A stretch of DNA of 64,000 nt from Candidatus Aenigmatarchaeota archaeon (GCA_021163145.1 JAGGXH010000064.1:2197-66196), one strand, 5' to 3'; positions 1-28,801 are shown, counted from the first letter of the stretch. Made by a program: numbers and translations. Notes: generated by a model from the sequence alone, not told the origin.

Positions 1-837
1 ATAGATGATAGAACATTAAAAGAAGTAAAAGAATTAATTGAAGATATAAAAATTGAAGAAAATGGATCATTCAAAAGTAGGATTAGTAGAATTAGTGGTT
101 CTCAAATAGATAATAAATATGGAGTTCTTTTATTAGGAAGTATAACACGTTACGGACAAACACAACAAGTTGTGCTTCTCCCAAAAAATATTACTAATAA
201 ATTTAAGCCAATAAACCTTTTATATCCTTATTTAAAATATTTTGGTTTTGGTTCAGAGTTTGAATATGGCGAATATTATATTCGTTTTAATGAAAGAGAA
301 GACAAAAAAGATACAATAATTAATAGAGTTGCTGATAAAATTATAGATAACTATTCCTTAATACTTACACATTATGAGGGCTCTAAAATAAGAGAATCAG
401 ACGGTAGATTGATGGGTCATGAACATATAACAATAATTCCCACACAAGAATTTGAAGAAATGTATAACAATAATCCAGATAATATTGGAGAGGATGTTTC
501 ACTATTTTATAAGAAACTTGCTCAGGAAGATGATGTAATGGAAGCACTAGCTAAAATAAGATTAAGTTTTAGAAATGCATTTGATTATGATAAATTAGAA
601 GACCAAATTTTATTAAAACATGCATTTGCATTATTGGCAAGAGATGGACCAAAAGCAGAACCATTAATAACAATAAAAAACTTAGAAGAATTAGCACTAC
701 AAAATGAACAACAAAAGACAAAAGAAAAATATTCATATAAACAATTGGAAACAATATATCAAGAATTAGAGAAAATATTAGAATCAAAAGATAGTGTTTC
801 TAGAGAAGAATTTGAAGCTATAAAGAAAAAAATCTAA
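1..837 (+). CDS. hypothetical protein, 5'-truncated by window edge (frame open from nt 1; listed ORF 172..837 is its C-terminal part)
   Basis: Frame 1 is open from position 1 through the stop at 837; no recognisable motifs. Confidence 0.45.
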   Translation: MDDRTLKEVKELIEDIKIEENGSFKSRISRISGSQIDNKYGVLLLGSITRYGQTQQVVLLPKNITNKFKPINLLYPYLKYFGFGSEFEYGEYYIRFNEREDKKDTIINRVADKIIDNYSLILTHYEGSKIRESDGRLMGHEHITIIPTQEFEEMYNNNPDNIGEDVSLFYKKLAQEDDVMEALAKIRLSFRNAFDYDKLEDQILLKHAFALLARDGPKAEPLITIKNLEELALQNEQQKTKEKYSYKQLETIYQELEKILESKDSVSREEFEAIKKKI

Positions 838-898
838 ATATAAATAATAATAAATGATTAAGAGCATTTATCTGAATTTAGACAATAATAAAATATTA

Positions 899-1837
899 TT
901 AAATTATTCCTGTTTGTAGCAATATTAACAATATTCCAAATCCAGATGCAGTCATTATAACACTATGTTTAAATCCAGCTAAAACAGAGTTCTCACTTAT
1001 TTGCCCTGCAACTAATCCACTAAATATACCTTGTATTACAACCATCATTAAAAATAATGAATGATAATAACACAATGTTCCTGTACCTAAGCTAAACATC
1101 TTACAAACAAATCCAAATACAGAACATGAAATACAAAATATATGCTTTGCTCCAATGCAAGAAACACAAGGATCTTCAAATATCAATATTCCTCCAAATG
1201 TACCACCAGTACTTATATTAAGCATTGGAACAATGGTTTTTGATAAACCAATTATAATACCAATAAATATGAAATAAATAACATACATTACCGTAATATG
1301 TTGAATCATCATTGCTTTTCTTTCTTTTTCTATTTCTTTTAACTCAATTATATCATTTGCAGTTGATTCCATAGTCTTTCCTATATCTCCCCCAGATTCA
1401 TAAGATTCTACAATGATTCTTACTATTCTTTTTATTATTATAGAATCTTTCATTCTTTTTGAAAATCTTTCAAATACTTCTTTAACAGGAATGCCCCATG
1501 AAATTTGATTATTCATTTTTTTAATCTCTTTTGTAAGTACACCATAATCTTTTTTTGAAATTGTCTTAAGAGCACTAGGCAATGTCATACCTGTTTTCTG
1601 AGCTTCTGATAAATCTAATAAAAATCCAGGAATTTGATCTTCAATTGCTTTTATTTTTTGATACCTAAGATATGATATCATAATATATGGAATTGTTCCA
1701 ACAACAGATCCAAATAATATAAAGTTTCCAATTAGTGCTGCATTACCCCAGAAAACAATTATACCAAAAAATATTATTAATGCTGCAACTATCAGTGGAA
1801 TGTGCTGATAACTTATTTTTTTGAAATCAAATTTCAT
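899..1837 (-). CDS. TadC/FlaJ-like type II/IV secretion system F-domain membrane protein (second of tandem pair)
   Basis: Hydrophobic N-terminus, cytoplasmic T2SSF-like segment, C-terminal TM helices; start ATG follows the stop of the upstream paralog; downstream of the pilus ATPase on the same strand. Confidence 0.55.
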   Translation of the reverse strand: MKFDFKKISYQHIPLIVAALIIFFGIIVFWGNAALIGNFILFGSVVGTIPYIMISYLRYQKIKAIEDQIPGFLLDLSEAQKTGMTLPSALKTISKKDYGVLTKEIKKMNNQISWGIPVKEVFERFSKRMKDSIIIKRIVRIIVESYESGGDIGKTMESTANDIIELKEIEKERKAMMIQHITVMYVIYFIFIGIIIGLSKTIVPMLNISTGGTFGGILIFEDPCVSCIGAKHIFCISCSVFGFVCKMFSLGTGTLCYYHSLFLMMVVIQGIFSGLVAGQISENSVLAGFKHSVIMTASGFGILLILLQTGII

Positions 1838-2722
1838 TTATACACCTGGTGATATTGATTTTAATATTGCAATGAAAATTATTGATGCAGCAGGTAATCC
1901 AATAAATATTACTACAAATTGTAAAAATGAAAGCAAAAGATTTAACTCACCAGCTCCAAATATAGACATAAGTGCTGACATTATTATAAAAAATATAGAT
2001 CCAACCACTACTACAGTTAAATACATTTCAATCATTAAAGATAATGTTTCTGAATAAGATTTTAATTTTCTTCGATGTTCAGCCATGAACATTTTTGATT
2101 TTTCATGTAAAAAGTCACTTAAATTACCACCAGCTCTTATAACAGTATCTAATCCCCAAAGCAATTCCCTTAATTGTGAAGATGGAGTTTTATCAGCAGC
2201 TCTTTTTATTGAATTTAAAATATCCATGCCAAATGCTTCTACATCTCTTGTTATTTTTTCTGCTTCTTTACTTATTTCTCCATATTCTTTAAATTTTGCA
2301 AGAAGTTTAAACATTGTAACAGGCGGTGCTCCTGAAGAAGCTATTGTTGCCATATATGTTGTTGCAAATGGAAGTGCAGCATCAATATTTTTTTGTCTTT
2401 TCTTTGCAATAATATTAGGATATGTATAAAACATTAAAAATAATCCTAATTCAATAAATATACTTATTGTTAAAGAAAAAATAAGTGCAATTAATGCTTT
2501 ATGAAATATTAATGCTGATATTAAAACCAATAAAGGAAATTCTATTATAAAAATAATTAACATAACAAAGAATGTAACATAAACATATTCAATTAAGCTA
2601 AGACCAATATCTGATTTTGGTAAATCAGATCTTACACTTTCAAAATATTTTTCAAATGATTCAAGACTTTTACCAAAAAATTTAAATGAAGCATCTCTTA
2701 ATTTATTCCACATTAATATCAC
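1838..2722 (-). CDS. TadB/TadC/FlaJ-like T2SS F-domain membrane protein (first of tandem pair)
   Basis: Polytopic membrane protein with cytoplasmic helical domain typical of GspF/TadC; ATGA overlap with the upstream ATPase gene. Confidence 0.55.
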   Translation of the reverse strand: MILMWNKLRDASFKFFGKSLESFEKYFESVRSDLPKSDIGLSLIEYVYVTFFVMLIIFIIEFPLLVLISALIFHKALIALIFSLTISIFIELGLFLMFYTYPNIIAKKRQKNIDAALPFATTYMATIASSGAPPVTMFKLLAKFKEYGEISKEAEKITRDVEAFGMDILNSIKRAADKTPSSQLRELLWGLDTVIRAGGNLSDFLHEKSKMFMAEHRRKLKSYSETLSLMIEMYLTVVVVGSIFFIIMSALMSIFGAGELNLLLSFLQFVVIFIGLPAASIIFIAILKSISPGV

Positions 2723-5700
2723 TGAATTGAGCTCAATAAGTCTTCTGGACGAGTATAATATAATTTTACTATTTTTGCAAAATCTTTATAATTAGTTATA
2801 TCATGTTCAACAACCCAATTTAATATTTTTTCTCTTCTTGATAATTCTAATTTTAGAAAATCTTCTTTAACACCATATTGTTCAGATATTCTTTTGAAAA
2901 CAATAGATGGACTAACTGCCTTATAAGTGTCTGTAGATGGATCCCACTTAAATACCTCATTTATTATTGGTCTATTTTCTTTTCTATCATAACCTACTAT
3001 TTCATAAACATTACTTACTTTTCTAACATATCTATTCTTATATTTTATTTTTACTAAAAATATGATTACATCAAGAGCTTCTATTAGATTTTTTGGCAAA
3101 CTTATAGGTGGTGTTGTTAATCTATCTATTAATCTATCCATTGTATCTGCATGTATTGTTGCCATAGATGGGTGACCAGTATTATGTAATAAAACTCCTC
3201 CAAATCCACCAATGAATGTATTTATTCTTGGCACATATAAGTCATATACTGGTTCAGGATTCTTTAATTCAATAACTTCTATTGATTTAACCTTATCTCT
3301 ATAATAATCATCTTGATGTATTTTACCATAATGCTTATTCAATTTTGTATTATTTTTACATTTTACATACTTAAGAAATTTTTCTTGGAATTGTTTTGTA
3401 TAAAATCTAATTTCATATTCTATTTTATTTTGTTTTCTTAGTTTTTTAGCAATCCTTGCAACAATTCCAAATTTTAATAAAAGATAACATATATCATTTA
3501 TAAGTTCTTTTGATGAGCTTGAATAATAAAATTTATCTTTTTTAAATGATCCATCACCAGCCCATAATGCAGTCAAAAAATGACCGATTTCCTTATTTGG
3601 TAAATTAAATATGAAATCAGGGATTTTTTTATTTTTTGATCCATGTTTACAATATTTTTTCAATAATTCAAATATAATTCTATGATTAAATGTTAATTCT
3701 GTACACTTCCCCCATCCATAAATTATACGTTCTCTAGCTTTCTTTCCAGTTACTTTTTCAATACATTTTCTCATATCTTCGAGTATTTTTTTATTAGAAT
3801 TATATAAGCTAATTGAACAATTTCTTTTTTCAGTATTTAAACTTCCTTCTGAAATATAATAACCTATTAATCTTAATAATTCAGGAGTTGGTTTTAATTT
3901 GGCTGGTAGCATTGGAGAATTACCGCCTCTGAATTTGACTTTGATATTTTTTAATTCCTTTCTCCAATCTATGTTAGCTTTTTTCATAAGTTTTATAAAT
4001 TTCTCAGATTTAATTGCACAATTATTTACACCATAATAATGAGAAATACATGAAACATTTGCAATCTTACTAGCTTCTTTAAAACCAAGTTTTTTACTAG
4101 CTTTTTTAATTAGTTCTGGAGAATATACTCTGATATTTTTAAACATTTTAATTAAATCTAAATCTTTAATCTCATTAGAGCTTGGCAATTTAGCAGGTAT
4201 TATAATTTCACTTCCAACTTTTAAATCTTGAACCATAATTGGAATAATTTTACCATCATATGTAAATACGGAATGTGCAGATGTTGCTATAATTTCTCTT
4301 CCTGATTTTGTTATAATTTTATATAATTTATCTACAGCTCTATGTTTTATTTTATATTTTATAGGTAATGTGCTCACTTTACCTGTAAATGGATCTAAGG
4401 TTGGTATGTTATATTGAATGCCAAATTTAAGGTTTTCTATAGCAGTTTTCTTTAAACAATTATTATCAAAATATAATACAGTTTCATATCCTGGTATTGA
4501 AGCAATTTGCTGGAATAATACATATGCTTCTTTACCTCTTACTTCACCAACAATCAAATAATCAGGTCTTTGTCTTAAGGATTCTTTAAGTAAATCAAAT
4601 AAGTCAACTTCTCCAATCTTTTTAGCACCAACTTCACTTATAGAAGTTCTAGCAACAGTTGGTACCCAATGTGGTAAAGGTAGTGATAATTCTGGTGTAT
4701 CTTCTATAGAAACAACCTTTAAATTAGGATTAATAAATAGTGATAATGCATTTAATAAAGATGTTTTACCAGAAGCAGTTCCACCTGATATTAATATTGA
4801 TCTTCCATATTCAATTAAAATCCATAAATATGATGTAAGCTTTTTATCAAGTGTACCAAAGTTTATAATATGTGTTGGAGTTAAAGGTTCTTTTGTAAAT
4901 TTTCTAATTGTTATATTGCTTCCTCTTCTTGCAATATCTGTTCCTAGTGTTGCTTGAACTCTTGATCCATCTGGTAATGCACCTTGTAACAATGGATTTG
5001 CAACAGATATTGACTTTCCACATCTTTGTGCAAGTTTATTTACAAATGTATCTAATTCATCAGCAGTTTCAAACATAATATTTGTTTTAACACTTCCAAC
5101 TAATGGATTTCTATGATAAATATATATTGGTATTCCAACTCCATCACATGATATATCTTCTATATCAGGATCTTGCATTAATGGTTCTATTTTACCCAAT
5201 CCTATAAAATCTCTTTCAATATAGTATAATAATGCATTTTGTTTTTCAATAGGAAGATCTTTGGCCATTAGCTTTACCATTTCTTTAAATTTTTCAACAA
5301 GATATTCTTTTGCTTCACCTTTTTTTAGAGTTGTAAAATCAACATCAAGCTTTTCTACTAATTCTTGTTTTATTTTTTCTAATAATTTTTTCTCTTGTTC
5401 AGTAAGTTCAGGCTCATAAACATAATAAACTAAAGAAGAATCTGCAATAGACCACTTTATATGTGCCCATGCATATGGATTTTTAGAATTTCTTGGTATT
5501 AATGCATATTTTATATTTACTTTTGTTAAATCTTCTTCCATATCTTTAAGCTTAGGCATTCTTATTGCTGAAGGCGCTTCTATTAATGATATTCCTTTTT
5601 CTATTGTTTCTGATGGTTTTGGCTTAACTTCTTCTCTTCTAAACCCTTCTTGTTGCACTTGTTGTATAATTATAGGTTGCTGAATAGTTTGTTTTTGTAT

Positions 5701-5787
5701 TACTGGTTTCTCTTCTTTTTCTTTCTTTTTCTTTGCACCTACAATAGCTTTTCTAATGACCTTTTTCATTGAAATTTTTTTCTTCAA
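2719..5787 (-). CDS. FlaI/TadA/VirB11-family type IV pilus assembly ATPase, intein-containing (1022 aa; extein ~582 aa)
   Basis: Walker A GGTASGKTS, IEDTPEL (Asp box), VGEVRGKEAYVLFQ...TGHPSMATIHAD His box; the conserved LFQA[IM]xTGH motif is interrupted between QIA and TGH by a 440-aa insert with LAGLIDADG motifs. Confidence 0.85.
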   Translation of the reverse strand: MKKKISMKKVIRKAIVGAKKKKEKEEKPVIQKQTIQQPIIIQQVQQEGFRREEVKPKPSETIEKGISLIEAPSAIRMPKLKDMEEDLTKVNIKYALIPRNSKNPYAWAHIKWSIADSSLVYYVYEPELTEQEKKLLEKIKQELVEKLDVDFTTLKKGEAKEYLVEKFKEMVKLMAKDLPIEKQNALLYYIERDFIGLGKIEPLMQDPDIEDISCDGVGIPIYIYHRNPLVGSVKTNIMFETADELDTFVNKLAQRCGKSISVANPLLQGALPDGSRVQATLGTDIARRGSNITIRKFTKEPLTPTHIINFGTLDKKLTSYLWILIEYGRSILISGGTASGKTSLLNALSLFINPNLKVVSIEDTPELSLPLPHWVPTVARTSISEVGAKKIGEVDLFDLLKESLRQRPDYLIVGEVRGKEAYVLFQQIASIPGYETVLYFDNNCLKKTAIENLKFGIQYNIPTLDPFTGKVSTLPIKYKIKHRAVDKLYKIITKSGREIIATSAHSVFTYDGKIIPIMVQDLKVGSEIIIPAKLPSSNEIKDLDLIKMFKNIRVYSPELIKKASKKLGFKEASKIANVSCISHYYGVNNCAIKSEKFIKLMKKANIDWRKELKNIKVKFRGGNSPMLPAKLKPTPELLRLIGYYISEGSLNTEKRNCSISLYNSNKKILEDMRKCIEKVTGKKARERIIYGWGKCTELTFNHRIIFELLKKYCKHGSKNKKIPDFIFNLPNKEIGHFLTALWAGDGSFKKDKFYYSSSSKELINDICYLLLKFGIVARIAKKLRKQNKIEYEIRFYTKQFQEKFLKYVKCKNNTKLNKHYGKIHQDDYYRDKVKSIEVIELKNPEPVYDLYVPRINTFIGGFGGVLLHNTGHPSMATIHADTMDRLIDRLTTPPISLPKNLIEALDVIIFLVKIKYKNRYVRKVSNVYEIVGYDRKENRPIINEVFKWDPSTDTYKAVSPSIVFKRISEQYGVKEDFLKLELSRREKILNWVVEHDITNYKDFAKIVKLYYTRPEDLLSSIQ
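3181..4500 (-). mobile_element. Intein (Ser1...His-Asn, +1 Thr) with LAGLIDADG homing-endonuclease domain inside the pilus ATPase
   Basis: Residues S430-N869 of the ORF: block A-like SIPGYETV, LAGLIDADG motifs LIGYYISEGS and FLTALWAGDGSF, C-terminal VLLHN then T; removing it restores LFQQIA|TGH matching FlaI/GspE consensus; N869 codon at 3181..3183 verified in the DNA. Confidence 0.7.
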
Positions 5788-6203
5788 CTTAATACAACCC
5801 CATCTTTATTTGCAATAATATTGATTTTACCTCTTGTACTATAAATAATTCCATCTGATTCTATATTTATGTTATATAAATTTAGAATTTTACCAATATT
5901 ATAATTATCGGTAGAATTGATATTAAGGCCATTTTCCAGTATTCTAATTGTATAAATACTACCAGATAATTTTGGAGGTATATTAATTTCATATTTTATA
6001 TTACTATTTGTATTTTTAGCTCCATAATATATTCTAATAATATTGCTTCTTATCATTTCAGATACTCTATCTATTTGTCCTTGAAGTGCTGTATCCTTTA
6101 ATTTTGAATTTATATCATTAAATGTAAAATATATCCCTATTACAAGTGATATACCAATTGCAAAGAATATTACATATTCAACTGTTAAATACTGACCTTT
6201 CAT
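5784..6203 (-). CDS. type IV pilin-like protein (class III signal peptide)
   Basis: N-terminus MKG|QYLTVEYVIFFAIGISLVIGIYF (short charged leader then hydrophobic helix); immediately upstream of the ATPase. Confidence 0.5.
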   Translation of the reverse strand: MKGQYLTVEYVIFFAIGISLVIGIYFTFNDINSKLKDTALQGQIDRVSEMIRSNIIRIYYGAKNTNSNIKYEINIPPKLSGSIYTIRILENGLNINSTDNYNIGKILNLYNINIESDGIIYSTRGKINIIANKDGVVLS

Positions 6204-6236
6204 ATAACATTAATTATTGTTACCTTATTATTAAAG

Positions 6237-6734
6237 TTATTCAAGGATAACCTTTATTTTAATAATAAAATTTGGATCATATATTACTTCACTTTTCTGA
6301 ATTTTTATTTTTCTAGGATTAGCTAATGTTGGACCATCAGTAATAAATTTAATAGAATAATCATTTTCTGGATATTCTATCTTTATTAATATTAAATTCC
6401 CTTCTTTTTTTTCTCTTATAACACCATCTTCAGTTATATTTATCCATTGTTCAGGAATATCTATATTTATAGTATCTTTAAATTCAATTGCATAATCATC
6501 TAAGATTATAACAGTTGCCGGATAATTATATTCAAGTTCAGCTTCACCACCAAATTTTATCACATCTTTTATTACAGAATCTAATTTAATTGCAAAATTT
6601 TCCAATTCATTTAACTTGTTTATATCTTGGTTTTTTTGTATAATTCCCTGGCTCCATATAAATGATGATATAAATAACACTAATCCAATTAAAAAAAGAG
6701 AAACAAAAATAATAATTTCGCTTTGTGCTTTCAT
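6237..6734 (-). CDS. type IV pilin-like protein
   Basis: N-terminus MKAQSEIIIFVSLFLIGLVLFISS, class-III-signal-like. Confidence 0.45.
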   Translation of the reverse strand: MKAQSEIIIFVSLFLIGLVLFISSFIWSQGIIQKNQDINKLNELENFAIKLDSVIKDVIKFGGEAELEYNYPATVIILDDYAIEFKDTINIDIPEQWINITEDGVIREKKEGNLILIKIEYPENDYSIKFITDGPTLANPRKIKIQKSEVIYDPNFIIKIKVILE

Positions 6735-6765
6735 GATAAATTATTCACAGACTTTGTATATAACT

Positions 6766-7227
6766 TTATACTCCTGCTTCTGGACATTCAAGTGTTTCTG
6801 ATTTATCAAGTCCTGTTTCTGTTGTTAGTTTTATTGTATGTGTTCCTGTACAACCTTCATAATCTGTTGTTAATGTAGCTACTTCTCCTGCTCTAATAGA
6901 TGTAATTTTTTCTTCTGTTTCCTCATCTACAGGAAGATTAAAATCAGTTATTTCACCATCAATATACATAGCTATTTTAGTTAAATCAATATCAGTTGTT
7001 CCTATATTTCTTATTGTTACTGATATTTGTCCTTTATCACTGTTGTATGTTGCAACTTCTATGTCAAAATCTGTTGCAATTTTCTCTGAAACACCTTCTG
7101 CAGCTTTTCCAACACCTTTAGTAATGCTTCCAAATACATCACTAAACCACACATAAGCTGCAGCTGCCAATGCTACAGTTATCATTAATATTAAGACAAC
7201 TGCAATTACAGCTGATACTGCTTTCAT
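6766..7227 (-). CDS. archaeal type IV pilin (archaeal pilin N-terminal domain)
   Basis: MKA|VSAVIAVVLILMITVALAAAAYVWF is typical of archaeal class III signal / pilin N-domain. Confidence 0.6.
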   Translation of the reverse strand: MKAVSAVIAVVLILMITVALAAAAYVWFSDVFGSITKGVGKAAEGVSEKIATDFDIEVATYNSDKGQISVTIRNIGTTDIDLTKIAMYIDGEITDFNLPVDEETEEKITSIRAGEVATLTTDYEGCTGTHTIKLTTETGLDKSETLECPEAGV

Positions 7228-7233
7228 ATTATA

Positions 7234-7737
7234 TCAACCTCTTTTTTTTAATTTTATGTTTGGATAAGATGATAATAAAGCTGAAACAGGTGTACCTCTT
7301 TTTATTTTCTTATTAATTGTTTCAAGTGCTTCCATAATAGCAGTATTATTTTCAATTAGTTTTTTATTTTCTTCAGACAGTTTTTTAATTTCTTCAATTA
7401 ATGGTTTAATAGATTCAGTACCAGGACCAACAATTTCTTCTGATCCAGCTGTTTCAATAAGATCCATAAAATCTTTCATTGTTTCAATTAATTCATCAAT
7501 TTTTTTAGGTATCTTAGATAATTCAATTCTTAAATCAGAATTTGCTTTTACTATTTCATTTATAATATTTTGATTTGTTTTTACAAGTTCAATTATTTGA
7601 GTTATTAATGATTGTAATTGTGGTATTGTACCTGCTTTTTCCAATACTTCTACTCTTTTTTGAAGTCTTCTTAAAGGGGTTACTGGTATTATCTCATAAC
7701 CTTCTTTAGTCTCTGAAAGTTCTACTTCATCTTTCAT
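7234..7737 (-). CDS. hypothetical coiled-coil protein
   Basis: Heptad-rich sequence, no catalytic motifs; sits between pilin genes and thermosome. Confidence 0.35.
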   Translation of the reverse strand: MKDEVELSETKEGYEIIPVTPLRRLQKRVEVLEKAGTIPQLQSLITQIIELVKTNQNIINEIVKANSDLRIELSKIPKKIDELIETMKDFMDLIETAGSEEIVGPGTESIKPLIEEIKKLSEENKKLIENNTAIMEALETINKKIKRGTPVSALLSSYPNIKLKKRG

Positions 7738-7800: not shown

Positions 7801-9432
7801 TTAATATGGTGGCATACCACCCATACCAGACATGCCACCAGATGAACCAGAATCTTTATTTAATTTACTTGCAGCTATTATATCATCAATTCTCAATATC
7901 ATTTCAGCTGCTTCTGATGCTGATTTTATTGCCTGAGTCTTTATTTTCAAAGGCTCAATAACACCTCTTTCTTTCATATCAATAATTTTTCCATTATAAA
8001 CATCTATACCAGCATTTACATTTCCTTTTTCATGCTCAGCTCTTAAGTTTACTAATATATCAATTGGATCTAGTCCTGCATTTTCTGCAAGTGTTCGTGG
8101 GATTATTTCCATTGCATCTGCAAATGCTTGTATTGCTAGTTGTTCTCTACCAGAATATTTTTGTGAGAAATCTCTTAAACCTTTTGCAACCTCTTCTTCA
8201 GGTGACCCACCACCTGCTAATATCTTTCCTACCTCAATTGCTGATGCTATTCCACCAATTGCATCTTTTAGTGCTCTTTCAACTTCTTCAGTGTTGTGTT
8301 CAGTTCCACCTCTTATTAATATAGATACTGCTTTTGGATCTTTACATTCTCTTACAAAAATCATATTATCTCCAGCAATTTTCTTTTCTTCAACTAATCC
8401 TGCAAAACCTAAATCATTTTCAGATATATCTGATAGATTTGACAGTATTTTTCCACCTGTTGCTCTTGCAAGTTTTTCCATATCAGATTTCTTAACTCTT
8501 CTTGCTGTTAATATATCAGCTTTTGCAAGGTAATGTTGTGCAACATCATCAATACCTTTTTGACATAATAATACATTACATCCAGAATCAATTACCTTAT
8601 CTACCATATTTTTTAACATTTTCTCTTCTTGTTCCATGAATTTTTGCAATTGTTCTGGTGATGTTATTTGTATTTGAGAATCAGTTTCCATTTTTTCAAT
8701 TTCTAATGATTTATCTAATAGCAATATTTTTGCATTTTCAACTTTTCTTGGCATAGATGGATGAACAATTTCTTTATCTATTATAATTCCTTTTATTAAT
8801 TCTGTGTCTTCTGAGCTTCCACCTTGCTTTTTTTCTAATTGAATATTGTCTTGATTTACTTTATTATCAGAGATAACAGATTTAACAGCTTCAACAGCTA
8901 TTGATGCTAAATGTTCTGAAGCTTTTTCAGTTCCTTTTCCTGTCATTGCTGTTATTGCAATTTTTTTAAGTGTCTCTGTATCATCAGGTGTTATTTTTTC
9001 TGATATATTTTCTAATATTTTTAATGCTTCTTTATTTGCTAATTTAAATCCTTTTGTAATAATAGTTGGATGAACATTTTGCTCAATTAACTCACCTGCT
9101 TTTTTCAAAAATTCTCCTGCTAATACTGCTGCAGTTGTTGTTCCATCTCCTACTTCTTCATCTTGTGTTTTTGCAACTTCTAGCAGCATTTTTCCAGCAG
9201 GATGTTCTATCTGCATTTCTTCTAATATAGTAACACCATCATTTGTAATTACTATATCACCTAATGAATCAACAAGCATTTTATCCATACCTTTTGGTCC
9301 TAATGTTGTTCTAACAGCATCTGCTACTTGTTTAGCTGCAGCTATATTTGCAGCTTGTGCACCTTTTCCTAATGTTCTTAATGTTCCTTCTGGTAGAACC
9401 AAAATAGGTTGGTTAGCTTGTTGAGTATTCAT
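7801..9432 (-). CDS. ths: thermosome subunit (group II chaperonin)
   Basis: [26 protein letters not shown]-repeat C-terminal tail. Confidence 0.9.
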
Positions 9433-15515: not shown

Positions 15516-17864
15516 ATGGCAGATGAAAGCAATGAAAAGAAAAAAGAAGGTTATTTAGAAAACGATGAGTTAGAGGAACCAAAAGAGAAAGTACCATCAA
15601 GATTAGCTGCTATTGGTAAACAAATCTGTCCAAAATGCGGAGCAATAAATCCTAGAAATAAACTTGTTTGTATAAAATGTGGTGCATTTCTTCCAAAAGC
15701 TTATAAAAAAGCTTCAGAAGCAAGATATGAATCTGCAGAAAAATGGAAATCTAGGTTTGGTGGTTTTGGAGAAAAAATAAAAGAATATATGCATATCATA
15801 ATCATACCAATCATACTTGGTATAATAGCTATATTATTTGGCTTTATATTTTTTGGTTCAGCATTATTTTTAATAGGATTTTATTTTGCTGCACCATATT
15901 CAAGTTATGCAAGAGGGCCATTAAAATTATTTATTTTATCTTTAATATATTTAGAATTTACAATTTTACATCCTCAAATATTAATAACTTTAATTGTTTT
16001 ATTTATAGGATATTTTTCAATGCCAACTGGTTATAGAGAATCAAGAAAATATAAAGCAGCAGAAGCATGGGGAAGAATATTTATAGGATATCTTGTGGCT
16101 ATTACCTTATATTCAGCATTGGGTGGAGCAACATCATTATATGTAATTCCATTATTAACATTATCACCAATTCAGGCGCCTTTATTTTTAATTTCATTTG
16201 CATTTTTCTTTGTATTGCCTGAAGTGAAGCCTGAAGGAGGAAGCATCAATATATATATGGGTCTTAAAGGAATTCCCCAAACTGTTGCTGGAAAAAGCAT
16301 TGGTGCAATAATATTTGTAACAATAATGTCAATAGCATTGTTATTTATATTAAATTCGTGGAAATTAGCAGAAACATCAACATTTACAATATCTATTTTC
16401 TGGATATTATCATTGATAATGGGTTTATTATCTGGTAGAGAAGGAAGACCATATACAGGAATAATAATGTTGGGAATTGCATTGCTCATGTTTTCAGTAC
16501 AATTTACAGGTGTTGTTGGAACAAATATATTTGGTCCATATTGGCCAACTGTTGAGCACTATACATCAGCAATAATAGAACCTATTAATAATGCAATTGA
16601 AAATGCTGCAAGTGGTGCAGAAGATGCATGGCTAATGATAACTTGTCCTCAATGTTATCAAGCTAAACAACAAAAAATGCAACAAATTGGAACAGGAAGA
16701 GTAAAACCAAGAGGAACTGTAAGATCAATAGAATTATCTAATTTTAATGCAATAAACTATGGAAGTGCAACACCAATAATAGATCCAGCACTTCCTTTAA
16801 TTGGAACAATAGAATTATCAAATAAAGGAGAATTTACAGGAAGAAACATTAAAGTTAAATTAGGTAAAGATGGTTCTGGTTATGTTTTATTAAAGGATCC
16901 TCAAAAAACAGGTGCAGCATATGATACATCTGTTTATTGCGATCCTAATAAAGGAAAAGAGTGTACATACACAGAACTTGAACATGATTTATGTACATTT
17001 ACATCATGTTTAGATTCAAATGAATATTATGACAATGTATTTGAAAAAAATAATCTAGTAACATCTTGTACATGGGATGAATCATTACCAGGAGATTTAA
17101 AAATGATGACATTTAAATGTGGTGATCCAAGCAAAGATTATTCTAAATGGACAGATCTTTCAATATTTGATCCAAATGCACCACCTGGATATGAAATATA
17201 TTTATATGGTCAAATGTTTGCAACAATTTTAATGGAGTATGAATTTGATTATGATGTAAATACATCTCTTGGAATAACTATAATGGATACACAATTGTTT
17301 ATAGATAAATTATCAAGAAAAGAAATAATACCAAAAGAAGAAACATCTGTATATACAGGTGGTCCAGTTCAATTAAATATATGGACACCAAAACAACCAT
17401 TAAGAGACATGGAAGAATCATATATAAGAATATCTGGAATTAATAAAGAAGATGGTGTTGTAGAAAAAGGAAGTGAACTTATTATAAAAATACCTGCAGA
17501 AAATATACCATTTGAATCTAGACCATTAATAGTAAGTAATACAGGTTTAGAAACTACAGAAAATAAATTGATTTATATCTGTAATGATAATACAGAAGTA
17601 GAAGTAAGTTCTATTCAAGAAGAAGAAAGTGCGTGTAGTAATAATGGTGGTGTAAAAGAATCATATTATGAAATAACAGGAACATTATCAAATGACTTAA
17701 ATAAAAATGACTTATTTACAATATTATTATCATTTAAATATTATTTGCCAGATCAAGTAGATGAAAAATCATTTATTCCTGTAGCAACATTTACTTATAC
17801 ATATAAAACAGATAAAAAAATTGAATTGCAAATAGCGAATGCACCAATAACAGGTGCTGGCTAA
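15516..17864 (+). CDS. large membrane protein: N-terminal cytoplasmic zinc ribbon, multi-TM core, Cys-rich extracellular C-domain
   Basis: CPKCGAINPRNKLVCIKCGA; several long hydrophobic segments; C-terminal ~450 aa with paired Cys and NxT sequons. Confidence 0.45.
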   Translation: MADESNEKKKEGYLENDELEEPKEKVPSRLAAIGKQICPKCGAINPRNKLVCIKCGAFLPKAYKKASEARYESAEKWKSRFGGFGEKIKEYMHIIIIPIILGIIAILFGFIFFGSALFLIGFYFAAPYSSYARGPLKLFILSLIYLEFTILHPQILITLIVLFIGYFSMPTGYRESRKYKAAEAWGRIFIGYLVAITLYSALGGATSLYVIPLLTLSPIQAPLFLISFAFFFVLPEVKPEGGSINIYMGLKGIPQTVAGKSIGAIIFVTIMSIALLFILNSWKLAETSTFTISIFWILSLIMGLLSGREGRPYTGIIMLGIALLMFSVQFTGVVGTNIFGPYWPTVEHYTSAIIEPINNAIENAASGAEDAWLMITCPQCYQAKQQKMQQIGTGRVKPRGTVRSIELSNFNAINYGSATPIIDPALPLIGTIELSNKGEFTGRNIKVKLGKDGSGYVLLKDPQKTGAAYDTSVYCDPNKGKECTYTELEHDLCTFTSCLDSNEYYDNVFEKNNLVTSCTWDESLPGDLKMMTFKCGDPSKDYSKWTDLSIFDPNAPPGYEIYLYGQMFATILMEYEFDYDVNTSLGITIMDTQLFIDKLSRKEIIPKEETSVYTGGPVQLNIWTPKQPLRDMEESYIRISGINKEDGVVEKGSELIIKIPAENIPFESRPLIVSNTGLETTENKLIYICNDNTEVEVSSIQEEESACSNNGGVKESYYEITGTLSNDLNKNDLFTILLSFKYYLPDQVDEKSFIPVATFTYTYKTDKKIELQIANAPITGAG

Positions 17865-17905
17865 CATTTATAATTAAATTATACTAAATAATAGTAGGTG
17901 ATGAT

Positions 17906-19741
17906 GTGAATATTAAATATTTGATTCCAATTTTTGCAATAGTTTCAATTGTTTTTGTTTCAGGTTGTATTGAAGGTTTTGATCTTTCTAGAATGGGTTT
18001 TGAAACATCAGGACCATTATCAGAACAATCTGCAGATATATTAGTAACAAAAAATATTCAGACAATCCCATCATCACCTATTTTAGCTGGAAATGAATTT
18101 TCAACAATATTTGAGCTTAAAAATAATGATAATATCAAAACAATTGAAAATGCACAAATAAAATTATTTGATTGGGGTGCATGTACACCATTAATAGATG
18201 AATTTGTTCCAAGTGGATGGGAAAAACCAGGTTCATATTATATTTACACATATGATAGTTTAGCACCAACTCAAGAAGAAAGAATTGAAATGGTATTTAA
18301 AGCACCTGACAATCAAAGAATAGGATATTTAGATGCTGATTGTAATATAAAATGGGAAACATCATATAATTTTAAAGCAATATCACAAGATGATTTTACA
18401 ATAATTTCAAAAACAAGATTAAAAGAATTGCAAAGAGCAGGTCAATCTTGGCAAGGAACAGATCAACCACAATATGTTGGTATAGGTCCAATTAAACTTT
18501 ATTTTGATTTTAAAACACCAATGCCTGTACAAAGTAAGGGCTCTATTCAATTTTCTGTAAAAGCAGTTGATAAAGGTTCTGGAACATTTGCAACTATACC
18601 AAAAGGTTTATTGCAAATAAGAGTTCCTGAAGACTGGTTAGAATATGATGAAAACGGGAACTTATTAAGTGGCTGTACAAGATTTGAACAAGCTTCTGGT
18701 GCTACTGGTGATGTTTTATTGCAAAAAACAGGAAGCTTTGTAATAATGCCAATGGCAGAATTGCAAACAGAAGAAGCTGGTGGAAAATATTGTGTATATT
18801 ATCCAATTGACACAAATCCTAATGCAGAAACAATTTTACAAAATGGTGAAACAAAGACATATTTATTAGAGACAAGTGATTTATCTAATATAAATAGTAT
18901 TACTCTTTCAGTAAAGAAACTTAGTCATAAAATCCGTAAATCTATTATTATTAAAATATTAGAAGATGGTAGAGAAATACATTACCAATCTTATATCTTG
19001 CCATTAGAAGGAGATGCAAATATTGAGTTAAATAAAAATATAGTATTAGTAAAAGGAAGAAAATATGAGCTATCAATTGAAAATCCTTATACACAATCTA
19101 AGACAGATGTTTATTTCTACAATGGAAAACAATATACACCATATTATAAATTATGTGGATCTGCAAGAGCAAAATATTTTGCTCAATCAGAGGCAAAAAC
19201 ATGGATAATTTCAGGAACAGAATATACTATAAATATGGTAGAGATATCATCTCCTAATGAAATAACATTTTATATAGATCCAAGTATAAATAATAAAAAT
19301 ATTATTACACTAAATCTTGGAGATGAAATTTCTATTGATGAAAGCAATAAATTAATATTTAGTGAATATGATAAGGCAACTGGCAAAGTTAAATTAGAAT
19401 TATTTGAAACAGGCACAGAAGTATCAGTAGTAGAATGCCAAACAAATGAAGATTGTGAAGAAGGATTTGAATGTAAAGATGGTCAATGTGTTGAAATATC
19501 AGCAACAACGCCAAGTGAAGTACCAGTTACAATAGAACAAGGATATGTAACATTTGTAAATTCTGTTCCAATAAATCTAATACAAGGTAAAACACCAGAA
19601 ATATTATGTAAATTTAAGGCACCTGATTTAGATGAGGAACAAATACCAGAAAAAACATATACTGTATTTGCAGAAATACCTGAGTATACATATAAAATAA
19701 CAAATTCAAAAACAGTTAGAATAAAACCAACAGTTGAATAA
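17906..19741 (+). CDS. secreted lipoprotein-like surface protein
   Basis: Signal peptide ending in lipobox-like VSGC (IPIFAIVSIVFVSGCIEG); Cys-knot-like CQTNEDCEEGFECKDGQC. Confidence 0.45.
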   Translation: MNIKYLIPIFAIVSIVFVSGCIEGFDLSRMGFETSGPLSEQSADILVTKNIQTIPSSPILAGNEFSTIFELKNNDNIKTIENAQIKLFDWGACTPLIDEFVPSGWEKPGSYYIYTYDSLAPTQEERIEMVFKAPDNQRIGYLDADCNIKWETSYNFKAISQDDFTIISKTRLKELQRAGQSWQGTDQPQYVGIGPIKLYFDFKTPMPVQSKGSIQFSVKAVDKGSGTFATIPKGLLQIRVPEDWLEYDENGNLLSGCTRFEQASGATGDVLLQKTGSFVIMPMAELQTEEAGGKYCVYYPIDTNPNAETILQNGETKTYLLETSDLSNINSITLSVKKLSHKIRKSIIIKILEDGREIHYQSYILPLEGDANIELNKNIVLVKGRKYELSIENPYTQSKTDVYFYNGKQYTPYYKLCGSARAKYFAQSEAKTWIISGTEYTINMVEISSPNEITFYIDPSINNKNIITLNLGDEISIDESNKLIFSEYDKATGKVKLELFETGTEVSVVECQTNEDCEEGFECKDGQCVEISATTPSEVPVTIEQGYVTFVNSVPINLIQGKTPEILCKFKAPDLDEEQIPEKTYTVFAEIPEYTYKITNSKTVRIKPTVE

Positions 19742-21522: not shown

Positions 21523-22767
21523 TTACTTTATAAAAGCTGATAATCCTTTTTGCCTGTATTTATATATTTCCATATTTATTTTCTTTCCTGGTGGAACAGG
21601 TATCCCATAAACTCCTGCACCACCTGGAATATATTTAAATTTATCTTCTCTAAATAGCTTAATTAATTCAGCAGTTTTTTTATGAACTTTTTCAAGTTCA
21701 TTAATAGAAATATTTAATAGAACATTAGTTTCATTTTCAAATTTATTAACAAATTCTTTCCATAAATCTTGAACCCTATTTGACCAAACCTGTTTAATAT
21801 TTAAGGCAATAGCAATAATTTCTGATAATGGTATTATATGTATATATTTTGGTCTATGCTTAGGATGAATACCTTCTTTTGTGTCAGAAAGTTCCTTAAT
21901 TCTATAATCAACACCTTTTTTAATATAATTTTTACATTTTGGACATCTCCAGTTAAGTTTTTCGGCTTCTCTTGGACTAAAAAACATTAAGCAACCTCTG
22001 CATCTTGTTCGGTTATATTTGCCTTCAAGTGGATTAAGTCCAACATTTAATATACATTTTCTATTAGCTTCTCTTTTTAATGCCTTAGATATCTCATTAA
22101 AGCTAATTTCTTTTATCTTAAGTTTATTAAATTCTCTTCCCATCTTATTTGGCCAAGGACTATGAGCATCACTATTGCTAAGAAATGTTAATTTATGTAA
22201 TTCGCTAATCCTATCAGCCATATTTGTATCTGCTGATAATCCTAATTCTAGAAAATGAATTTTATTCCAGTATTTTCCATAACAATCTTTATATGAATCA
22301 AACTTAGAATATAATGAAAAATATGGAGTAAAAGCATGCGCGAATCCTATTAAACAATCTGACTCTATACACATTTCAGCTATTTGTTCAGCACTTAACC
22401 ATAATTTAGGTCTGCCATCTGTATCTAGATTTTTACAATGTTTTTTTATTTTTTCTCTTAGTTCATATACTTTTGATAAACTAGGAAATAATATAATATG
22501 ATGAACTCTGTTATTGTCTTCAACTTCAGTCTGTAAAATAAATTTTGTTCCATTTGGATGTTCAAAAATATCTTCAGTAACTGGTTTTAATTGCTGTTTT
22601 ATTAATTTGATCCATCTTTCATTTAATATATCAGCTGTTCCAACCAGTTGTAAACCTTTTAATAGAGCTTGTTCTCCGATTACTTTTGGGATCATCTTTT
22701 GACTAACTGCACCAGAATAAAGCCCATGTACATGGAGGTCGCAATTAACTTCTATAAAATCAGACAT
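21523..22767 (-). CDS. PHP-domain nuclease with C-terminal zinc ribbons, EndoQ-like
   Basis: N-terminal CDLHVHGLYSGAVS (PHP metal-binding His cluster); C-terminal CRGC...CPKC; size ~414 aa fits archaeal endonuclease Q; assignment from memory of family features. Confidence 0.4.
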   Translation of the reverse strand: MSDFIEVNCDLHVHGLYSGAVSQKMIPKVIGEQALLKGLQLVGTADILNERWIKLIKQQLKPVTEDIFEHPNGTKFILQTEVEDNNRVHHIILFPSLSKVYELREKIKKHCKNLDTDGRPKLWLSAEQIAEMCIESDCLIGFAHAFTPYFSLYSKFDSYKDCYGKYWNKIHFLELGLSADTNMADRISELHKLTFLSNSDAHSPWPNKMGREFNKLKIKEISFNEISKALKREANRKCILNVGLNPLEGKYNRTRCRGCLMFFSPREAEKLNWRCPKCKNYIKKGVDYRIKELSDTKEGIHPKHRPKYIHIIPLSEIIAIALNIKQVWSNRVQDLWKEFVNKFENETNVLLNISINELEKVHKKTAELIKLFREDKFKYIPGGAGVYGIPVPPGKKINMEIYKYRQKGLSAFIK

Positions 22768-24194
22768 TTTTTATACACCTTATACCAATTTTTATCTAAT
22801 AAATCAAATTTTCTTAGAGTTCTACAGAAATTTAGAAATTCCTTTCTAATCATAGGATAATAGTTATTCTGAAATTTTAAAATTATATTTCTTATTTCTC
22901 TACCTTCTTTTGTAAATATAATTTTATATTTTTTATTTGGTTTTGGACTTATTTGCTTTAATTTTATTAGCTCATATTTCTTGAAAACATTTATATATTT
23001 TTTTTGACCTCTTGCAATGTCAATACCCTTAATAATGTAACCGTCTTTGATTTTCATAAAAGCTTTTGTATACTGTAAATTTAAGAACAAATATATAAAT
23101 TTTAATCTATTAATCAGATTGAATTTATAAATATCATTGATTATAAGATTTATATTTTTGAACCAATCTGAATAAATTATCAATTTAGCTGTAGTAGGAT
23201 AATTACAGCATTTGATTTTTATATTTTCATTTTTAAATATTTTTTCTAATAATAAGAAATCTGAATTTAGCGTTTTTTTATTTAAGCTAATATGATGAGT
23301 TAAAAATGTTTTTGTCTGCTTTATAGGACTTCCGTCACCTGACAAAACACCTCTAATAAAATTATTATTGTCATATGGAATATTCACATCTAATAATTTT
23401 AAAAATAGTTCTTTTAGAATAATGCTACCAATATTCATTTCAAGTGTACCGCATGGTGATCTCGATTTTCTGCTTAAATGAAGCTTTGTGAATTTTTCTA
23501 TACCGGTTTGAGTTTTCCAAAATGCCTTTAATTGTTTTTCTTTTTTCTTTAGTTTGGGGTGACAATATATAGAAGCACTAATATCTTTTCTTCTTAGGTT
23601 TGATATGCTTTCTATAAAATCTAAAATAATATTAATTGTACTAGGGTCAGAATTTGTAAATGATGGTGCTTTCTTCCCACCTTCAGCGAAATATAAACCT
23701 AATGCAGCAGATGCCAATTCAGTAATTCTTATTTTTTTGTTAAAAATAATATCTTTTTTATAATATCCTCCAACTAATACTTTTAAATTGTTTAGTTGAT
23801 ATGCATAAATTGGAGTTAATCCTGTAGATTTCGGCATAATAGAAAGAATAGATATCTCGGAAGATTCTTTCTTATTTTCTCTAATTAAAGCCTCCTTTTC
23901 TGGAATTATATCTATAATCTTAATCTTCGGATTTTTAATCAACTTTTCCTTTTTGTATGAAATAATATAACTGTTTTCTGTTCTATGCATTTTTTTGAAT
24001 CTTATTGATTTATTATCTTTATTTGAAACTTCAACAACAGTTATTAAATTATTACAAGGTTTAGAAATAAAATTTTTAATGATACTCATTGGAATTGATG
24101 TAGTAAAATTAGATCTTATATGCGGTTTATATGTATTATTATTTATAATGCTATACTTGCTTCGATCCAAATTTAACTCACTAATATTTACCAC
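22752..24194 (-). CDS. LAGLIDADG homing endonuclease-like protein (free-standing)
   Basis: Motifs LGLYFAEGGK and FIRGVLSGDGSP; 3' end overlaps the start of the EndoQ-like gene by 16 nt. Confidence 0.55.
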   Translation of the reverse strand: MVNISELNLDRSKYSIINNNTYKPHIRSNFTTSIPMSIIKNFISKPCNNLITVVEVSNKDNKSIRFKKMHRTENSYIISYKKEKLIKNPKIKIIDIIPEKEALIRENKKESSEISILSIMPKSTGLTPIYAYQLNNLKVLVGGYYKKDIIFNKKIRITELASAALGLYFAEGGKKAPSFTNSDPSTINIILDFIESISNLRRKDISASIYCHPKLKKKEKQLKAFWKTQTGIEKFTKLHLSRKSRSPCGTLEMNIGSIILKELFLKLLDVNIPYDNNNFIRGVLSGDGSPIKQTKTFLTHHISLNKKTLNSDFLLLEKIFKNENIKIKCCNYPTTAKLIIYSDWFKNINLIINDIYKFNLINRLKFIYLFLNLQYTKAFMKIKDGYIIKGIDIARGQKKYINVFKKYELIKLKQISPKPNKKYKIIFTKEGREIRNIILKFQNNYYPMIRKEFLNFCRTLRKFDLLDKNWYKVYKKCLIL

Positions 24195-27601: not shown

Positions 27602-28801
27602 GTGAACTATATGTCAAATGATACAAATTATAAGCTAAAGAAACTATTAAAAGAACTTGAAAGTAAGAGAGGAAGGCACACAGAATTGATTAGTCTTTAT
27701 ATTCCTAAGGGATATTCTTTAAATGAAATAATGACACTGCTGTCAAATGAAATTTCATTAACACAGAACGTAAAATCTAAAACAGTTAGAAAAAATGTTA
27801 CAGATGCATTAACAAAAATAATGCAACATCTTAAGACATATAAAAAGACTCCTGAAAATGGTTTAGCTATTTTCTGTGGAAATGTTTCTGAGCAAGAAGG
27901 TAAAACAGATATTGAACTCTGGGCTGTTGAGCCACCAGAACCACTTGGTATAAAATTATATTGGTGTGATCAAAAATTTGAATTACAACCATTAAGAGAC
28001 ATGGTTAAAGAAAAAGATGTATATGGATTAGTTGTATTAGATGCAAATGAAGCAACAATTGGAATTTTAAAAGGAAAGCAAATACAAGTTAAGAAACATC
28101 TTAAATCAATTGTTCCTGGAAAGTTTATTAAAGGTGGGCAATCACAAATGAGATTTCAAAGAGTTAGAGAAGGTTTATTAAATGATTGGTTAAAAACTGT
28201 TGCAGAAAATGTTAAAAAATTCTTATCAGACACAAAAGGCATTATTATAGGTGGAGGAGGACCTGTTAAAGATAATTTTTATAATAAGCATTATCTTCCA
28301 ACAGAATTAGAAAAAAAAGTTATTGGTATAAAAGATGTTGGATATACAGATGAGCATGGCTTACAAGAACTTTTAAATAGATCAGAGGATTTATTACAAG
28401 AAGCAGCAGTTTCTAAAGAAAAAAAGATATTGAAGAAATTCTTTGATAATTTAAACACAGATAGCGGAATGGTGGTATATGGATTAGATGCTGTTATAGA
28501 TGCATTGCAAAAAGGTGCAGTGGAAACAATTCTTATATCAGAAGATCTAGATTATTTTGAAGGAGAATTTATTTGCGAATGTGGAAATTCTTTTAAAAAA
28601 ATTGTAAAAAATGAAAATATCAAATGTCCAAAATGTGGAAGTAACATGAAATTGATTGGAAAAGAAGATATAATAGATGCTATAGAAGAAATTGTTAAAA
28701 ATTATGGAACAGAAGTTATTATTATTTCTAGAACAACATCAGAGGGAGAACAATTTTATAACATTGGTGGAATAGGAGCTATCTTAAGATATAAAATATA
28801 A
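27602..28801 (+). CDS. prf1: peptide chain release factor aRF1
   Basis: GGQ motif (FIKGGQSQMRFQR), NIKS-like TQNVKSKT, C-terminal GGIGAILRYKI; contains a CxxC...CxxC insertion in domain 3. Confidence 0.85.
   Translation: MNYMSNDTNYKLKKLLKELESKRGRHTELISLYIPKGYSLNEIMTLLSNEISLTQNVKSKTVRKNVTDALTKIMQHLKTYKKTPENGLAIFCGNVSEQEGKTDIELWAVEPPEPLGIKLYWCDQKFELQPLRDMVKEKDVYGLVVLDANEATIGILKGKQIQVKKHLKSIVPGKFIKGGQSQMRFQRVREGLLNDWLKTVAENVKKFLSDTKGIIIGGGGPVKDNFYNKHYLPTELEKKVIGIKDVGYTDEHGLQELLNRSEDLLQEAAVSKEKKILKKFFDNLNTDSGMVVYGLDAVIDALQKGAVETILISEDLDYFEGEFICECGNSFKKIVKNENIKCPKCGSNMKLIGKEDIIDAIEEIVKNYGTEVIIISRTTSEGEQFYNIGGIGAILRYKI

Follow-up and report, generated by a model that had tools for sequence, protein, structure and literature searches.

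A well-studied comparable system is the KlbA intein of Methanocaldococcus jannaschii (MJ0781), the prototype of the class 2 inteins, which starts with Ala1 and in which Cys+1 attacks the N-terminal junction directly (PMC2807308). Its host is an archaeal FlaI/VirB11-like ATPase and it is inserted in the conserved His box of that protein (PDB 2JMZ/2JNQ). Larger inteins with an endonuclease have been solved from other hosts. PI-PkoII (Thermococcus kodakarensis Pol intein 2, 2CW7), PI-PfuI (1DQ3), TliVMA and PhoVMA (7QSS/7QST) and PI-SceI (1VDE) all have a HINT splicing domain interrupted by a double LAGLIDADG endonuclease together with an accessory region, and most of the set start with Cys1. Here a 440 amino acid (aa) insertion is described in the His box of a FlaI/ArlI-like ATPase gene, within a 64,000 nucleotide (nt) stretch of DNA (the window) from Candidatus Aenigmatarchaeota archaeon (GCA_021163145.1 JAGGXH010000064.1:2197-66196). 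We conclude with high confidence that this insertion, nt 3181..4500, is a canonical class 1 intein with a two-motif LAGLIDADG endonuclease.

The intein and its host ATPase

A sequence-only reading of the window had proposed an open reading frame (ORF) at 2719..5787 for a type IV pilus ATPase of 1022 aa, with a contiguous 440-aa LAGLIDADG intein (Ser1, Thr at +1) between LFQQIA and TGHPSMATIHA. The coordinates are exact. The segment runs from SIPGYETV at residue 430 to VLLHN at residue 869 and lies in-frame between Ala429 and Thr870, within the His box LFQQIA/TGH (here and below a slash marks an insertion point). The features of the gene are as follows.

2719..5787 (-): precursor gene, 1022 aa, a FlaI/ArlI-like (COG0630, T2SSE) type IV filament assembly ATPase with one intein
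4501..5787 (-): N-extein, aa 1-429, with a K/Q/E-rich N-terminal tail, N-terminal domain, Walker A, Asp box, Walker B and the first half of the His box
4759-4785 (-): Walker A, GGTASGKTS, aa 335-343, in the N-extein
aa 358-367 (-): Asp box, VVSIEDTPEL (SIEDTPEL at 360-367), in the N-extein
aa 409-418 (-): Walker B, DYLIVGEVRG, in the N-extein
4501-4518 (-): first half of the His box, LFQQIA, in the context KEAYVLFQQIA at the end of the N-extein
3181..4500 (-): class 1 intein, 440 aa, aa 430-869, starting with Ser1 and ending with His868-Asn869
4462..4500 (-): block A, SIPGYETVLYFDN, with Ser430 as predicted N-terminal nucleophile; Ser1 is invariant in 77/77 inteins at this site
4264..4311 (-): block B, TKSGREIIATSAHSVF, with Thr502 and His505 (intein T73 and H76; T-S-A-H); H76 is invariant
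3895..4176 (-): helical middle region (helices at 116-185), intein aa ~109-202, which separates the first splicing half from the endonuclease core and is conserved across the allele family
3367..3894 (-): LAGLIDADG homing-endonuclease core, intein aa ~203-378, from Pfam, alignment and model
3841-3879 (-): LAGLIDADG motif 1, LLRLIGYYISEGS, intein residues 208-220, with Glu647
3544-3579 (-): LAGLIDADG motif 2, FLTALWAGDGSF, intein residues 308-319, with Asp745
3181..3312 (-): C-terminal half of the splicing (HINT) domain, with block F, EPVYDLYVPRINTFIGG, containing Asp849 (VYD849), and block G, GGVLLHN, containing His868-Asn869
2719..3180 (-): C-extein, aa 870-1022 and stop codon, from Thr870 (predicted +1 nucleophile) to a PilB3_C-like tail
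3148-3180 (-): second half of the His box, TGHPSMATIHA, at the start of the C-extein; downstream flank TGHPSMATIHADTMDR

The host protein shows Walker A, Asp box, Walker B and His box in the order expected of a type II/IV secretion-family ATPase (T2SSE, COG0630). Pfam T2SSE matches residues 236-422 (E 1.5e-25), the PilB3_C-like tail is found by Pfam at residues 952-1019 and the NCBIfam FlaI model matches the spliced sequence as a single stretch, residues 77-570. The FlaI/ArlI equivalog model NF058587 scores the spliced extein at 420.9 bits and the precursor at 396.6 bits, both below its cut-off of 550 bits, and no match to the ArlH models was found among the neighbours scanned in 172..7737. 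For these two reasons the protein is filed, on its profile matches, as a FlaI-like (COG0630) type IV filament ATPase and not as a proven archaellum motor ArlI, and the earlier label of type IV pilus ATPase is a reasonable one. The K/Q/E-rich low-complexity N-terminal extension, aa 1-75 (5560..5787, -), is not covered by the alignments to the solved structures of GspE and FlaI. The start of the gene is ambiguous, being either TTG at 5787, which overlaps the upstream stop codon as TTGA, or ATG at 5769, six codons later. The window contains the DNA of JGI contig Ga0187538_161235 (sample 3300017593; a 40-nt probe maps to window position 719), and the JGI gene call on that identical contig uses the ATG to give a protein of 1016 aa (P0001). 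This ambiguity leaves the intein finding unaffected.

The sequence-only reading had suggested alignment to FlaI, GspE and VirB11 as a check on the junctions. Query residues 116-428 and 869-1018 align with residues 51-354 and 355-504 of A. fulgidus GspE (2oap), and query residues 120-428 and 869-1003 with residues 55-349 and 350-491 of S. acidocaldarius FlaI (4ii7). The query breaks at 428/869 while the chain numbering runs on without a gap, at 354/355 in 2oap and 349/350 in 4ii7, and the host is therefore contiguous across the break (FQAM-x/TGH).

Profile searches, conserved residues and the predicted fold bear out the proposal of a large intein of the LAGLIDADG kind, with Ser1 and Thr+1, interrupting the His box of this type IV filament ATPase. 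Pfam Intein_splicing (E 5.8e-19) stops exactly at Asn869, and LAGLIDADG_3 (E 2.2e-21) matches in two stretches. The NCBIfam models which match the segment are intein_Nterm and those of several intein-containing proteins (RNA polymerase A'', PolII large subunit, Tes, RFC and GyrA). Both LAGLIDADG motifs quoted in the sequence-only reading were found, at intein residues 208-220 and 308-319, and their acids, in GYYISE218G and WAGD316G, are 98 residues apart. The catalytic residues, numbered in the precursor, are Ser430, Thr502/His505, Asp849, His868, Asn869 and Thr870, with Glu647 and Asp745 as the endonuclease acids. From the base composition (~27% G+C) the chance of 440 stop-free codons is estimated as ~1e-17. 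The G+C content is 24.6% in the intein and 28.5% in the extein, and at third codon positions 11.6% and 10.5% respectively; the difference between intein and extein is too small for a foreign origin to be argued from it. No second intein was found in the window when a hidden Markov model (HMM) of the allele family was run against all six frames.

The AlphaFold2 model of the intein, made on an alignment of inteins from the same site, has a mean predicted local distance difference test (pLDDT) score of 93.5 and a predicted template modelling (pTM) score of 0.92. It comprises beta-rich splicing halves (~1-108 and ~397-440) on either side of a helical region (~109-202) and an alpha/beta core (~203-378). 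Foldseek against the PDB returned intein structures, headed by PI-PkoII (2cw7, E 1.9e-29, template modelling (TM) score 0.73) and followed by TliVMA, PhoVMA, PI-PfuI and PI-SceI. Across these solved inteins, in which the HINT domain is split as in the window intein, E ranges from 1.9e-29 to 1e-12 and the TM score reaches 0.73; the sequence match to 2cw7 has E 1.1e-18. However, identity to them is only 11-20% and their hosts are DNA polymerase, ribonucleotide reductase and V-ATPase. Mini-inteins match the splicing domain, and the free-standing LAGLIDADG enzymes I-DmoI, I-Tsp061I and I-SceI match the core (TM normalised to target ~0.5-0.7). The confident model and these matches identify the predicted fold as that of a HINT domain. 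The modelled secondary structure of the core, 203-378, fits the pseudo-dimeric alpha-beta-beta-alpha-beta-beta-alpha LAGLIDADG fold, and the helical middle region is presumed to take part in DNA recognition because the fold matches PI-PkoII and PI-PfuI.

The segment might instead be a domain inserted specifically in this host, or the product of a fusion or of misassembly. Nothing was found in favour of this. A host domain should leave homologues with an insertion of similar length which lacks the HN and +1 residues. The homologues interrupted here have Ser1, HN and Thr or Ser at +1 in 77 of 77 cases, and intein-free homologues read LFQQIA-TGH. An identical gene is present on the independent JGI contig, and dozens of independent assemblies have the same architecture. 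With the matches to intein and LAGLIDADG HMMs and to intein folds added, host-specific insertion and assembly artefact are both ruled out, and we give this explanation practically no credence.

The established class 1 pathway consists of an N-O shift, transesterification, Asn cyclisation and an O-N shift (PMC2807308). Applied to this protein, translation would give a 1022-aa precursor, inactive owing to its split His box. Ser430 would undergo an N-O acyl shift, assisted by Thr502 and His505 of block B, and Thr870 would attack the ester to give a branched intermediate. Cyclisation of Asn869, aided by His868 and by Asp849 of block F, would release the intein, and an O-N shift would then leave a normal Ala-Thr peptide bond in a 582-aa ATPase with an intact His box, LFQQIATGHPSMATIHA. 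The ligated junction peptide would be QQIATGHPSM, with the expected form VLFQQIATGHPSMATIHADTMDR. The freed intein is predicted to act as a site-specific endonuclease which cuts intein-free alleles around TTCCAGCAAATWGCW/ACWGGTCAY (target TTCCAGCAAATTGCTACTGGTCACCC plus flanks; junction GCW/ACW), and recombinational repair would copy the intein into the cut allele, i.e. homing.

Comparison with KlbA and with alleles at the same site

The KlbA site was read from PDB chain 2JMZ, with a query carrying guessed flanks, and from the sequences P0140 and P0141, not from MJ0781. In the 2jmz chain TGHDG directly precedes ALAYDEP. KlbA-like environmental homologues continue after ...SN with CSGTLHANSCDEAILRLKSPPMNVPE (CSGTLHAN) or with CLGTIHAN, and these align with (TGHPS)MATIHADTMDRLIDRLTTPPISLPK of the window, i.e. 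TGHPS-MATIHAD. Two other placements of the KlbA site, before the Cys of EDISCDG and at the Walker A loop, were ruled out by the PDB chain matches with flanked queries. Thus, while both inteins interrupt the same His box, the KlbA site is ~5 residues further downstream, after TGHxG, whereas the window intein is inserted before TGH. KlbA is of class 2, with Ala1 and Cys+1, and the window intein, with Ser1 and Thr+1, is of class 1. The M. jannaschii KlbA intein is a 168-aa mini-intein without an endonuclease, in contrast to the 440 aa with a LAGLIDADG domain found here. Site, class and size all differ, and the window intein is not a KlbA intein. A search with the M. jannaschii KlbA intein gave only two relatives.

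Homologues of the precursor were taken as the best 120 by total score, a sample which is biased in that it favours intein-bearing distant hosts and intein-free close hosts. An intein at the same site is present in 77 of the 120, mostly from DPANN where the source names an organism; the best-named homologues come from metagenome-assembled genomes of Aenigmatarchaeota, Woesearchaeota, Nanoarchaeota and Nanohaloarchaea. All 77 have Ser1 and a C-terminal His-Asn, position +1 holds Thr (39) or Ser (38) and position -1 Ala (66) or Ser (11). An alignment of 47 sequences shows block B His76, Gly213-Tyr214, Gly219, Gly315-Asp316 and block F Asp420 to be invariant, and Glu218 to be conserved in at least 90%. 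The full-size alleles (P0002-P0027, P0102 and P0121 being examples of this His-box allele of DPANN FlaI-like ATPases) share the host family and the insertion point, FQxxA/S followed by T/S-GH. They are 426-450 aa long, have the two-motif LAGLIDADG core and the conserved Ser1, His-Asn and blocks, and are 40-55% identical to the window intein. They differ from it in that about half have Ser at +1, and in that the window extein falls in a sub-clade where no other sampled member carries a His-box intein. Mini-inteins of 169-170 aa occupy the His-box site in two proteins (P0072 and P0092) whose hosts are sisters of P0007, which has a full 441-aa intein; they fit loss of the endonuclease domain in place as part of the intein life cycle.

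Searches were also run with the intein alone. A word-indexed search returned only 20 proteins, too few for a host range, while an exhaustive search of representative sequences found 56 clusters with E of 1e-30 or below and 976 with E of 1e-10 or below, the strongest matches being overwhelmingly in the FlaI-like ATPase family. An alignment-based scan of genome contigs was swamped by the extein pattern IEDTxE and confirmed only 5 loci, which do not amount to a taxonomic census. JGI labels some of the same-site homologues 'VirB11/archaellum biosynthesis ATPase/intein/homing endonuclease'. In the literature searched for inteins together with FlaI, archaellum, DPANN or secretion ATPase, no paper describing the His-box Ser1 allele was found; the allele is annotated in databases and, among the literature searched, described in no paper.

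Intein-free orthologues are ~575-590 aa long with an uninterrupted YVLFQQIA-TGH. One of them (P0076, at locus L002) is identical at 370 of 559 positions in a local alignment and 71% identical over a 475-column core. The junction DNA of L002, TATGTTTTGTTCCAGCAAATAGCAACAGGTCATGCCTCACTC, aligns without a gap to the joined extein ends of the window.

The distribution of the intein among close relatives is patchy, and offers in the window and L002 a natural pair of filled and empty target sites for tests of homing. The 25 closest exteins (69-74% identity) have no His-box intein, and the intein-bearing homologues reach at most 63% extein identity. In a neighbour-joining tree of extein cores the window protein falls within a clade in which no other sampled protein has a His-box intein. 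Such patchiness is what the homing cycle predicts, by gain of the intein in the window lineage or by repeated precise loss. No close donor is among the sampled homologues.

Several points weigh against an active class 1 homing intein. Splicing and DNA cleavage themselves we infer from the residues and the fold. The closest intein in the sample shares just ~55% identity, which leaves no trace of a recent transfer; the intein could be an old resident, kept vertically, whose endonuclease no longer homes. The bias of the homologue sample noted above applies here also. Finally, the window has Thr at intein position 428 where at least 90% of the family have Asn, though this may be an alignment shift given that Asn427 is adjacent.

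An intein which splices but is no longer mobile would have been inherited vertically over a long period and retained since only a precise deletion restores the essential His box. The ceiling of ~55% on identity to any sampled relative fits this, as does the correlation between intein and extein identities across hosts (r = 0.55). The +1 residue also tracks host groups, Thr going with FQQ..TGH and Ser with FQG/FQA..SGH, which suggests long co-residence. However, both LAGLIDADG acids and the whole endonuclease core are conserved across the 77 alleles, and the 440-codon frame is intact in AT-rich DNA. Moreover, the closest exteins all lack the His-box intein, a pattern that takes either a gain in the window lineage or many independent precise losses. 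We therefore regard an immobile resident as a real but clearly less probable alternative, and retain the canonical class 1 intein with its two-motif endonuclease as the preferred reading.

Neighbouring genes and other reading frames

Along the minus strand the operon consists of a coiled-coil ORF without a family match, an archaellin/pilin-domain gene, two small ORFs, the ATPase and two FlaJ-like halves. The neighbours of the ATPase with assigned features are as follows.

6766..7227 (-): archaellin/type IV pilin N-terminal domain gene, by family match, upstream of the ATPase
6237..6734 and 5784..6203 (-): two small upstream ORFs with hydrophobic pilin-like N-termini, without a family match
1838..2722 and 899..1837 (-): FlaJ/TadC-type (T2SSF) platform protein as a split pair, N- and C-halves of ArlJ/FlaJ models, 294 and 312 aa

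The first of the platform ORFs, 1838..2722, shares 4 nt with the ATPase gene at its stop codon. A split T2SSF pair is likewise present at the intein-free orthologous locus L002 (291 and 317 aa; L002 5344..7177) and, with the split shared by the two loci, the pair has the look of a conserved arrangement in two genes rather than of a frameshift. A thermosome-like gene, recognised from its translation, follows at 7801..9432. Overall the locus looks more like a type IV pilus-like operon than an archaellum operon.

The sequence-only reading had also counted three free-standing LAGLIDADG genes in the window. This count could not be confirmed. A motif scan flags two ORFs, one with a borderline Pfam match and one with motifs only. 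The first, 33551..34828 (+), 425 aa, lies just upstream of a Kae1/TsaD gene. It matches Hom_end at 21.8 bits against a cut-off of 21.1 and LAGLIDADG_3 at E 0.0062, has a weak HTH_3 match and shows a single motif, LQGLADSDGY. It is perhaps a free-standing homing endonuclease that has diverged or degenerated. The second, 22752..24194 (-), 480 aa, has two strings resembling LAGLIDADG, LGLYFAEGG (166) and IRGVLSGDGS (282), spaced by 116 residues, with no Pfam match at E <= 1 and no PDB sequence match. A PDB sequence search with the two ORFs gave no convincing relative for either.

Two further observations concern other parts of the window. The aRF1/eRF1 homologue at 27602..28801 (+) has a domain 3 of 129 residues compared with a profile of 106 positions, and weak zinc-ribbon matches at ~322-349 suggest a small zinc-ribbon insertion. 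For several large ORFs (782, 611 and 414 aa) in 15516..19741 (+) and 21523..22767 (-), Pfam gives nothing significant apart from a short zinc ribbon.

An ATPase family with several insertion sites

Inteins in secretion ATPases had been called rare in the sequence-only reading. For archaea this is wrong, and the window intein is a typical case. Beyond the 77 of 120 homologues with the present allele and the KlbA intein in the same His box, 21 inteins are listed in archaeal VirB11/COG0630 and 5 in CpaF (Novikova et al. 2016, PMC4760082). When the long homologues were mapped on a spliced reference, at least six insertion sites were found in the ATPase family, with up to three inteins per gene. 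The sites other than those in the His box are, in reference residues:

274/275: LPDG/S
~292/293: RGSNx/T (RGSNx/TIRKFT), where the inteins start with Cys and end with Asp
341/342: Walker A, GK/T
363/364: IED/T
418/419: Walker B, VGEVRG/x

Genes with two inteins exist and encode ~1450-1670 aa. In a protein of 2011 aa (P0142) three junctions could be read, at sites ~293, 364 and 430, and for two others, P0160 (2140 aa) and P0163 (2097 aa), gap length alone suggests three or more inteins. The inteins of P0058, P0085, P0100 and P0142 at ~292/293 are atypical in having a C-terminal Asp (..LHD/T, ..IFD/T, ..VFD/T) and not His-Asn, and in some of them the penultimate His is missing as well.

Among the closest relatives of the window intein at another site are those at Walker B in P0152, P0153 and P0158 (VGEVRG/S...HN/SEA; E 4e-71 to 2e-58). 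They lie 11 residues upstream and their ends are nearly identical to those of the window intein (SIRGDEE... and ...NFIGGFGGLILHN). However, the three proteins have an uninterrupted His box, and the insertion point and +1 context are different. The resemblance hints that one intein lineage may have moved between the neighbouring Walker B and His-box sites (ectopic movement).

The intein might alternatively be a conditional switch, its splicing sensing temperature, redox, metals or host contact and so gating the assembly of the pilus-like filament. Conditional splicing has reportedly been documented for other archaeal inteins, RadA being the case in point. With a catalytic motif split, the activity of the ATPase would depend strictly on splicing, and the family is unusually rich in inteins. 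However, the two nucleophiles, Ser and Thr, both act through oxygen, which leaves the usual cysteine redox switch unavailable, and close relatives work without an intein. Selfish inteins generally sit in conserved catalytic motifs (PMC4760082), which also counts against a switch. We consider it highly improbable that the intein serves as one, and keep to a canonical class 1 homing intein.

A broader interpretation is as follows. The Ser1 intein at x/T/S-GH would be a formally undescribed element, widespread mainly in DPANN and distinct from KlbA. The pilus/archaellum-type ATPase of these episymbiotic archaea would stand out as an exceptional hot spot for inteins, with six or more sites, two of them in the His box, a closely related intein 11 residues upstream and up to three inteins per gene, and the window lineage would be a recent gain in an intein-free clade. 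We regard this interpretation as improbable.

For annotation, the gene is an intein-containing FlaI-like ATPase with a 582-aa mature product and not an oversized or fused protein. Calls based on length or on HMM cut-offs would otherwise miss an intein-bearing ATPase of this kind, which falls below the NCBIfam FlaI cut-off. For inteins, the locus adds one all-oxygen (Ser1/Thr+1) full-length intein to a large allele family and leaves the current understanding of inteins unchanged. For the ATPase family, the His box of archaeal secretion ATPases becomes a two-allele hot spot, in which this allele family adjoins the classic KlbA site. If the broader interpretation were true, the hot spot would reflect either frequent exchange of DNA between DPANN cells or a role for splicing in gating filament assembly at the post-translational level.

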